Source: Candidatus Aenigmatarchaeota archaeon (GTDB lineage: Archaea; Aenigmatarchaeota; Aenigmatarchaeia; CG10238-14; SpSt-28). Taken from it: a DNA stretch of 64,000 nt. The DNA itself is not shown here. A report on this DNA, generated by a model with database tools, continues below. Location: NCBI GenBank assembly GCA_038997165.1, contig JAWBAK010000001.1, positions 61,926-125,925 of the forward strand, in the 5' to 3' direction.

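Follow-up and report, generated by a model that had tools for sequence, protein, structure and literature searches.

RESULTS

Frame, topology and membrane helix of the giant protein

The gene that ends in the P-loop ATPase is read in frame 2, which contains no stop codon from nucleotide 2 onward; hence, the protein comprises at least 7,893 residues within the window, and its true N terminus lies to the left of it. The start at the ATG at position 917, taken from the list of open reading frames, was ruled out because the frame is already open from nucleotide 2. Translation of positions 22499 to 23683 reproduced the sequence quoted in an earlier reading of this DNA made from the sequence alone, which had described a HerA/FtsK-superfamily ATPase joined by a single transmembrane (TM) helix to a giant ectodomain. 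The frame is indeed continuous across this junction, and the TM helix is kept in 82 homologues. The window has a G+C content of about 27%.

Features of the giant gene and of the genes downstream of it
Feature	Position (nt)	Strand	Basis or remark
Giant extracytoplasmic region, very probably SPEARE-type	2..21616	+	Repeated Ig-like/CARDB-like modules; rich in N-x-S/T sequons and Cys
Cys-rich module YVCGNGICEDRFGESNAICPLDC	21617-21685	+	Read from sequence
Elastin-like Gly/Ala/Pro/Val linker	21686-21811	+	Read from sequence; directly after the Cys-rich module
Two membrane-proximal Ig-like (NPCBM_assoc/CARDB-like) domains	21851..22498	+	BLASTP alignment to the Nha. antarcticus SPEARE C terminus begins here
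Predicted single TM helix, N terminus out, C terminus in	22499..22561	+	Residues 7500-7520 of 7,893; hydrophobic in 82 homologues
K/R-rich juxtamembrane cytoplasmic segment, positive-inside signal	22562..22609	+	Charge asymmetry
Predicted HerA-clade RecA-fold ATPase core	22610..23473	+	Pfam DUF87 and HerA_C, PDB profile, AlphaFold, Foldseek
Walker A, AAGGTGSGKT	22736-22765	+	
Walker B, LLLIYDEIH	23114-23140	+	
Gly/Lys/Tyr loop after Walker B, LPKYGGKGGY	23147-23176	+	Conserved
REFRKWG motif (REFRKWGIG) with putative arginine finger	23198-23224	+	
C-terminal three-helix/coiled-coil domain and TAA stop (23681-23683)	23474..23683	+	AlphaFold helices 327-352, 358-372, 376-393
Coiled-coil partner, 410 aa, cytoplasmic, K/E-rich, SHOCT-like motifs	23686..24918	+	Starts 2 nt past the giant gene stop
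Second surface protein, 1,908 aa	24915..30641	+	Start overlaps the coiled-coil gene stop by 4 nt
Archaeal MinD-type ParA/MinD ATPase	30675..31442	+	TIGR01969 minD_arch, E=1.8e-44
203-aa protein, recurs in the cluster	34346..34957	+	tblastn matches in 10 loci, between the 1,908-aa-protein and MinD homologues

Adhesion-type (Ig-like) domains build the giant ectodomain, as in the SPEARE proteins of Nanohaloarchaeota; the Pfam matches to them are mostly weak (Big_7, DUF11, Big_1, MG2, NPCBM_assoc, and Big_3), and repeated modules can be recognized in the sequence itself. No laminin-G, protease, toxin, or beta-propeller domain was matched by Pfam at an E-value of ≤0.01 across the 7,499 ectodomain residues (nucleotides 2 to 22498). 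The same residues contain 283 N-x-S/T sequons, against 108 ± 8 in shuffled sequences, and 120 Cys, while the 373 cytoplasmic residues after the TM helix contain neither a sequon nor a Cys. Positive charge is distributed in the opposite way, with seven K/R within 20 residues after the helix and two before it, and the K/R fraction in the juxtamembrane columns of the homologue alignment rises to 1.0. Together, these sequence asymmetries strongly support a type I membrane protein, with an ectodomain of more than 7,500 residues predicted outside the cell and the ATPase in the cytoplasm, where the sequence-only reading had placed the P-loop domain. From the excess of sequons we infer that the ectodomain is glycosylated.

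Several elements close to the membrane recur in relatives. A Gly-rich linker occupies the equivalent position in the Nanohaloarchaeum antarcticus SPEARE protein, as poly-Gly, and in the homologous protein P0058, and the homologue P0118 has a similar Cys-rich module directly after its signal peptide. The two membrane-proximal Ig-like domains are also found in P0058, P0118, and a further homologue, P0020, with conserved columns upstream of the TM helix. The Ig pair, the TM helix, and the ATPase constitute a conserved base common to giant and mini members of the family. Within the TM helix, which is covered by a helical segment (residues 5 to 37) of the AlphaFold model, Thr7, Tyr8, and Pro16 are conserved in 89%, 94%, and 98% of the 82 homologues, respectively. 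The near-invariance of polar residues and a proline in this position suggests that the helix may be more than a passive anchor.

The cytoplasmic domain is a predicted HerA-clade ATPase

Profile searches and structural modeling strongly support the assignment of the cytoplasmic domain to the HerA clade, with Walker A, Walker B, and the arginine of the REFRKWG motif all intact. The domain scored 42.1 bits with Pfam DUF87 ("Helicase HerA, central domain"; cut-off, 23.2) and barely exceeded the cut-off of HerA_C, and both families matched all 37 aligned family members. When a profile of this alignment was searched against the PDB, the best match was Sulfolobus HerA (4d2i; E=3.9e-14), followed by defence HerAs and YjgR; FtsK and type IV coupling proteins (T4CPs) reached E-values of just about 0.02 to 0.09, those of the T4CPs being about 0.03 or worse, and no VirB4 chain was found at an E-value of ≤1. 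The AlphaFold model computed on the family alignment had a mean pLDDT of 88 and a pTM of 0.83. Its Foldseek matches in the PDB were HerA structures from rank 1 to rank 18, with the coupling protein TcpA at rank 19 and FtsK at rank 45. PADLOC, applied to the ATPase, returned HerA-type models only, as weak matches (E=2e-12). The earlier placement in the HerA/FtsK superfamily is thus upheld and narrowed to the HerA clade.

Other families matched below their cut-offs. These were ResIII and DEAD (E-values of about 1e-3), T4SS-DNA_transf (PF02534; 17.8 versus 20.1 bits), and FtsK_SpoIIIE (PF01580; 16.2 versus 24 bits), and the VirB4 family PF03135 had no match among the 37 family members or in any protein scanned. 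The best NCBIfam match was CedD, with 43.8 bits versus a cut-off of 600; CedB scored 21.5 versus 700, and both matches cover the Walker A region only. The NCBIfam HerA models scored 25 to 32 bits versus cut-offs of 800 to 970, and the CedD, CedB, HerA, and TraB models jointly 20 to 44 bits versus 600 to 970.

K88 of Walker A, D211-E212 of Walker B, and R234 and R237 are invariant in the 37 sequences. In an HMM alignment, R237 lies opposite R381 of Sulfolobus solfataricus HerA within a common RE(G/F)RK(F/W)G motif; we take R381 to be the trans-acting arginine finger of HerA and E356 to be its catalytic Glu. K88 lies opposite K154, the Walker A Lys of HerA (PMC5715905). Directly ahead of DUF87 lie the TM helix and about 35 residues, and neither Pfam nor the AlphaFold model contains an N-terminal HAS barrel. 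At the other end, the C-terminal helices (residues 327 to 393) were modeled with a pLDDT of >90 and align with the C-terminal coiled coil of SPEARE.

The giant protein very probably belongs to the SPEARE family

Hamm et al. 2019 (PMC6642349) described the SPEARE proteins of Nanohaloarchaeota, which have up to 8,553 residues, are mostly extracytoplasmic, and carry a TM segment near the C terminus. A SPEARE protein is expressed and was detected by proteomics, and similar sequences were noted in Woesearchaeota, Aenigmarchaeota, Micrarchaeota, and Altiarchaeales, with an Aenigmarchaeota homologue in Table S3 (PMC6642349). In the proteomics, the ectodomain ran apart from the portion made up of the TM segment and the cytoplasmic region; if the chain is cleaved, the Gly-rich linker at 21686 to 21811 is a candidate site in the window protein. 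The intracellular part, which is the most conserved part of SPEARE, was read as a type III restriction enzyme (PMC6642349). Reva et al. 2023 (PMC10266531) reanalyzed two such proteins of 9,409 and 8,880 residues. In these, a Sec signal peptide is followed by Ig-like domains in tandem and a TM helix, and the cytosolic side carries an ATPase called "VirB4/TraG-like" and, at the end, a coiled coil. The authors proposed that the proteins form a "straw" resembling a type IV secretion system (T4SS). They also noted a gene for a VirB4/TraG-family ATPase with PF03135 immediately downstream in Nanohaloarchaeota, and disputed the laminin-G, serine-protease, and toxin-like domains (PMC10266531) that Hamm et al. 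had found in SPEARE (PMC6642349).

By BLASTP, the last 693 residues encoded in the window are colinear with the last 662 of NAR1_1133 from "Candidatus Nanohaloarchaeum antarcticus" (sequence from SI Fig. S18 of PMC6642349), with 35% identity over 621 residues and an E-value of 2e-117. The alignment extends from the pair of Ig-like domains through the TM helix and the ATPase to the coiled coil, and it therefore identifies the window gene as a SPEARE-family member from an Aenigmatarchaeota-like organism. Judged by sequence and anatomy, this is very probably a giant surface protein of the SPEARE family, made by a DPANN archaeon; the belief in the sequence-only reading that no family with this architecture had been described is overturned. 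[quoted passage not shown] It further lacks the downstream VirB4-family ATPase gene (PF03135), the place of which is taken by the genes for the coiled-coil protein, the 1,908-residue protein, and MinD.

The original annotation of the SPEARE cytoplasmic domain is presumably due to a weak ResIII match, which we reproduced below the threshold. The giant-protein family was not covered in Makarova 2014 and 2019, and the predicted archaeal secretion system of Makarova 2015 (arCOG01314/arCOG02884 and a MoxR ATPase), which we considered as a candidate, is a different system.

The fusion is widespread in DPANN archaea

A word-indexed protein search retrieved 429 relatives, mostly of 350 to 690 residues and labelled as DUF87 proteins of Aenigmarchaeota and other DPANN archaea. 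The ATPase as a usually short, stand-alone protein, as these lengths would imply, was ruled out by the genomic loci, which show giant open frames. A scan of one genome per species confirmed at least 526 loci, and the 80 that were retained come nearly all from metagenome-assembled genomes (MAGs) labelled Aenigmat-, Micr-, Woese-, Pace-, Nano-, Nanohal-, Parv-, or Altiarchaeota. In about 70 of the 80, the frame of the ATPase is open upstream to the end of the available sequence, which amounts to at least 3,333 residues wherever a 10-kb flank existed; the short database proteins are therefore mostly fragments from contig ends. The closest relatives of the giant protein are labelled Aenigmatarchaeota, and the best genomic match, an Aenigmatarchaeota MAG (L006), is 89% identical in the ATPase domain and 65 to 81% identical in the downstream genes.

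Complete mini members of 549 to 730 residues also exist; they start with a signal peptide of their own and have about two Ig-like domains ahead of the TM helix, with the ATPase and the coiled coil behind it. In one locus (L004), an 11,780-residue gene is followed by a 664-residue mini paralogue. A split form, with a motorless giant gene and a separate anchored motor, was ruled out for this locus because the giant gene ends in its own ATPase domain; the two genes are thus tandem giant and mini paralogues.

An artefact, in which assembly had joined two separate genes or the gene had decayed to a pseudogene, is so improbable that we give it hardly any weight. Such a reading could point to the relative in locus L001, which is broken into several open frames, and to locus L025, where one stop codon interrupts the frame within an Ig domain, 48 codons short of the TM helix; these apparent splits are lesions and not another gene organization. 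Against it, the frame runs on unbroken in the window and in about 70 assemblies obtained independently from several DPANN phyla, all 37 aligned sequences keep the catalytic residues, and the type member of SPEARE was seen by proteomics. The possibility of a mis-joined gene, raised with the original observation, can be set aside on these grounds.

Conserved partner genes downstream

The giant gene is followed on the same strand by genes that recur in its relatives. Homologues were counted by tblastn against 85 loci as downstream, same-strand matches, with the loci that had enough flank as denominators. A homologue of the coiled-coil partner lies directly downstream in 72 of 79 loci, including the Nanohaloarchaeota loci L028 and L081, so that this gene is shared with SPEARE. 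Homologues of the second surface protein were found in 34 of 52 loci and of the MinD/ParA protein in 18 of 52, and L001 also has the latter.

The coiled-coil partner family has a conserved core (ESIGELRS and GS.ENL) and matched no Pfam or PDB family beyond generic coiled-coil noise, with weak similarity to coiled-coil families of mycoplasmas and Spiroplasma. The 1,908-residue protein starts with a signal or anchor, continues as a large ectodomain, and has a TM helix near its C terminus, behind which a short coiled-coil tail with a SHOCT-like motif lies in the cytoplasm; its TM-like segments are at residues 1 to 30 and 1815 to 1843, and it matches NPCBM_assoc and MG2 weakly. The 203-residue protein encoded further downstream had no Pfam match. 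Among the neighboring genes scanned, none beside the giant gene encodes a nuclease, VirB-like protein, relaxase, pilin, defence effector, or polytopic membrane protein; the search for an adjoining nuclease or pore, proposed together with the sequence-only reading, thus returned neither. The window contains no NurA, Mre11, or true Rad50, and PADLOC identified no defence partner.

DISCUSSION

DPANN archaea depend on direct contact with their hosts, and SPEARE-type proteins are the most conspicuous candidates for structures through which material could cross. The cytoplasmic domain of these proteins was first interpreted as a restriction enzyme and later as a VirB4/TraG-like ATPase; our analysis places it in the HerA clade, with its catalytic residues intact and conserved in position. 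The gene in the window adds an ordinary member to a family that has already been described. What is new here is the placement of the ATPase in the HerA clade, the finding that the fusion is both broad and constant, the conservation seen in the TM helix, and that of the partner genes. Hundreds of genomes, labelled as several DPANN phyla, contain the fusion, and a fixed set of partner genes accompanies it. The putative ring motor, the TM helix with its Thr-Tyr pair and Pro, the coiled-coil partner, and the second surface protein are concrete targets for work in cultivated pairs of nanohaloarchaeon and host.

The best profile and fold matches of the ATPase are HerA, the DNA end-resection translocase of the HerA-NurA system (4d2i and 9x1m), and the defence HerAs (SIR2-HerA and DUF4297-HerA). 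Like these, the domain combines a RecA-like core that bears both Walker motifs with the REGRKFG/REFRKWG arginine motif and a C-terminal part made of helices. However, the giant protein has a TM helix and a giant ectodomain in place of the HAS barrel, its gene is not accompanied by NurA, Mre11/Rad50, SIR2, or DUF4297, and its scores with the NCBIfam HerA models are far below the cut-offs. FtsK/SpoIIIE, the coupling proteins TrwB/VirD4/TcpA, CedB, and CedD are ring ATPases of the same superfamily that are likewise cytoplasmic and tethered to the membrane by N-terminal TM segment(s), and they move DNA or protein across membranes at cell contacts or septa. They have two to four TM helices, no large ectodomain, and polytopic channel partners, whereas the giant protein has one TM helix, an ectodomain of more than 7,500 residues, and no channel partner, and matches their Pfam and NCBIfam models below threshold. 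In detail, the FtsK/SpoIIIE motor domain PF01580 is subthreshold and the single TM helix is not part of a polytopic N-terminal domain; for VirB4/VirD4/TraG/TrwB, PF03135 is absent, PF02534 is below its cut-off, and there are no VirB-like genes; and for Ced/Ted there is no equivalog-level match to CedB or CedD and no polytopic CedA-like protein nearby.

How might such a protein work? We hypothesize that the ATPase would assemble as a ring, presumably a hexamer as in HerA, and that such a ring would gather six TM helices, together with six ectodomains, into a single fibre that is anchored in the membrane where the symbiont touches its host. In the cytoplasm, a scaffold may be formed by the coiled-coil partner and the tail of the second surface protein, and the MinD-type ATPase may position the complex. 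Host binding would fall to the ectodomain, and transport of a polymer between the cytoplasm of the symbiont and the cell-cell junction to the ring. A ring that acts as an ATP-driven translocase at the host contact is the mechanism that we rank first, as a tentative choice suggested by sequence and by analogy. As its substrate, DNA is slightly favored over protein because of the HerA clade and the analogy with CedB and CedD, membrane-bound FtsK-HerA ATPases that are required for DNA import in archaea, CedD being essential. A DNA conduit is difficult to reconcile with one TM helix per subunit, which would give at most a six-helix bundle, too small by itself for this purpose. Export of the protein's own ectodomain in cis, which the sequence-only reading had also considered, is unlikely because the motor is translated last. 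A broader proposal, in which the giant protein, the coiled-coil partner, the second surface protein, and MinD would together form an undescribed, DPANN-wide machine for DNA or protein transfer, distinct from T4SS, Ced/Ted, and FtsK-type systems, goes further than we consider likely.

The alternatives differ in what the ring would act on. Uptake or transfer of DNA, suggested by the sequence-only reading and, for DNA entering the symbiont, by Hamm et al. 2019, would have a HerA-type translocase of double-stranded DNA pull in host DNA for nucleotide salvage or gene transfer. The HerA-clade domain fits this idea, as do the binding of double-stranded DNA by HerA hexamers (PMC5715905), the best NCBIfam match, which is to a membrane-bound DNA-import ATPase (CedD), and the conserved Lys/Tyr/Gly loop after Walker B. 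Yet the bit scores with CedD, CedB, HerA, and TraB remain a small fraction of the cut-offs, the HAS barrel, NurA, and any other nuclease are missing, no CedA-like channel is encoded nearby, and a six-helix TM bundle is too narrow for double-stranded DNA, so that we regard this specific reading as unlikely. Still less likely, and third in our ranking of mechanisms, is the published T4SS-like straw (PMC10266531), in which a VirB4/TraG-like secretion ATPase would drive effectors into the host through the giant protein as a channel. All these ATPases share one superfamily, matches below the cut-offs to T4SS-DNA_transf, TrwB_AAD_bind, and AAA_10 occur in 16 to 31 of the 37 members, the T4CP TcpA comes directly after the HerA structures in Foldseek, and cytoplasmic bridges between symbiont and host have been seen by cryo-electron tomography. 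This reading is weakened because there is neither a VirB4 signal nor a T4SS partner here: PF03135 never matches, VirB4 is absent from the PDB profile matches that HerA leads, T4CP and FtsK Pfam scores stay under their cut-offs, and no second VirB4-type ATPase, VirB6-like polytopic protein, or clear pilin operon adjoins the gene. Moreover, tandem Ig-like domains offer no obvious conduit. The reading as a restriction endonuclease, from the original SPEARE annotation, or as a HerA-based anti-phage system is largely refuted and ranks last. Weak ResIII and DEAD matches are present in 31 of the 37 members and PADLOC returned its HerA models, but the former do not reach their cut-offs and are confined to the generic P-loop core, there is no nuclease domain, as Reva et al. 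also concluded (PMC10266531), no SIR2, DUF4297, or other effector partner lies nearby, and anchoring to a giant ectodomain is unlike the known defence HerA systems.

Second to the translocase we rank mechanical or assembly work on the fibre itself, a somewhat doubtful reading. The ring would oligomerize the adhesin and, in concert with the coiled-coil scaffold, spend ATP on changes in the conformation, tension, or turnover of the adhesin, giving an attachment organelle with no conduit. The conserved partners agree with this, as they comprise proteins of the coiled-coil or scaffold type and a positioning ATPase of the MinD type, with no channel protein among them; the near-invariant Thr-Tyr and Pro of the TM helix would be expected for the transmission of force or signals, mini members retain just two Ig domains and the motor, and giant and mini paralogues occur in tandem in L004. 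We know of no member of the FtsK-HerA superfamily that acts mechanically on an adhesin, which counts against this reading. A precedent outside the superfamily is the gliding machinery of Mycoplasma mobile, in which giant surface "legs" are driven by internal F1-like ATPase rings. Although these motors are F1-like alpha/beta paralogues, non-homologous to the ATPase described here and not covalently fused to the adhesin, so that the likeness is one of analogy only, the M. mobile machinery and the mycoplasma terminal organelle combine giant anchored surface proteins, cytoplasmic RecA-fold rings, and a coiled-coil cytoskeleton in a host-attached cell with a minimal genome.

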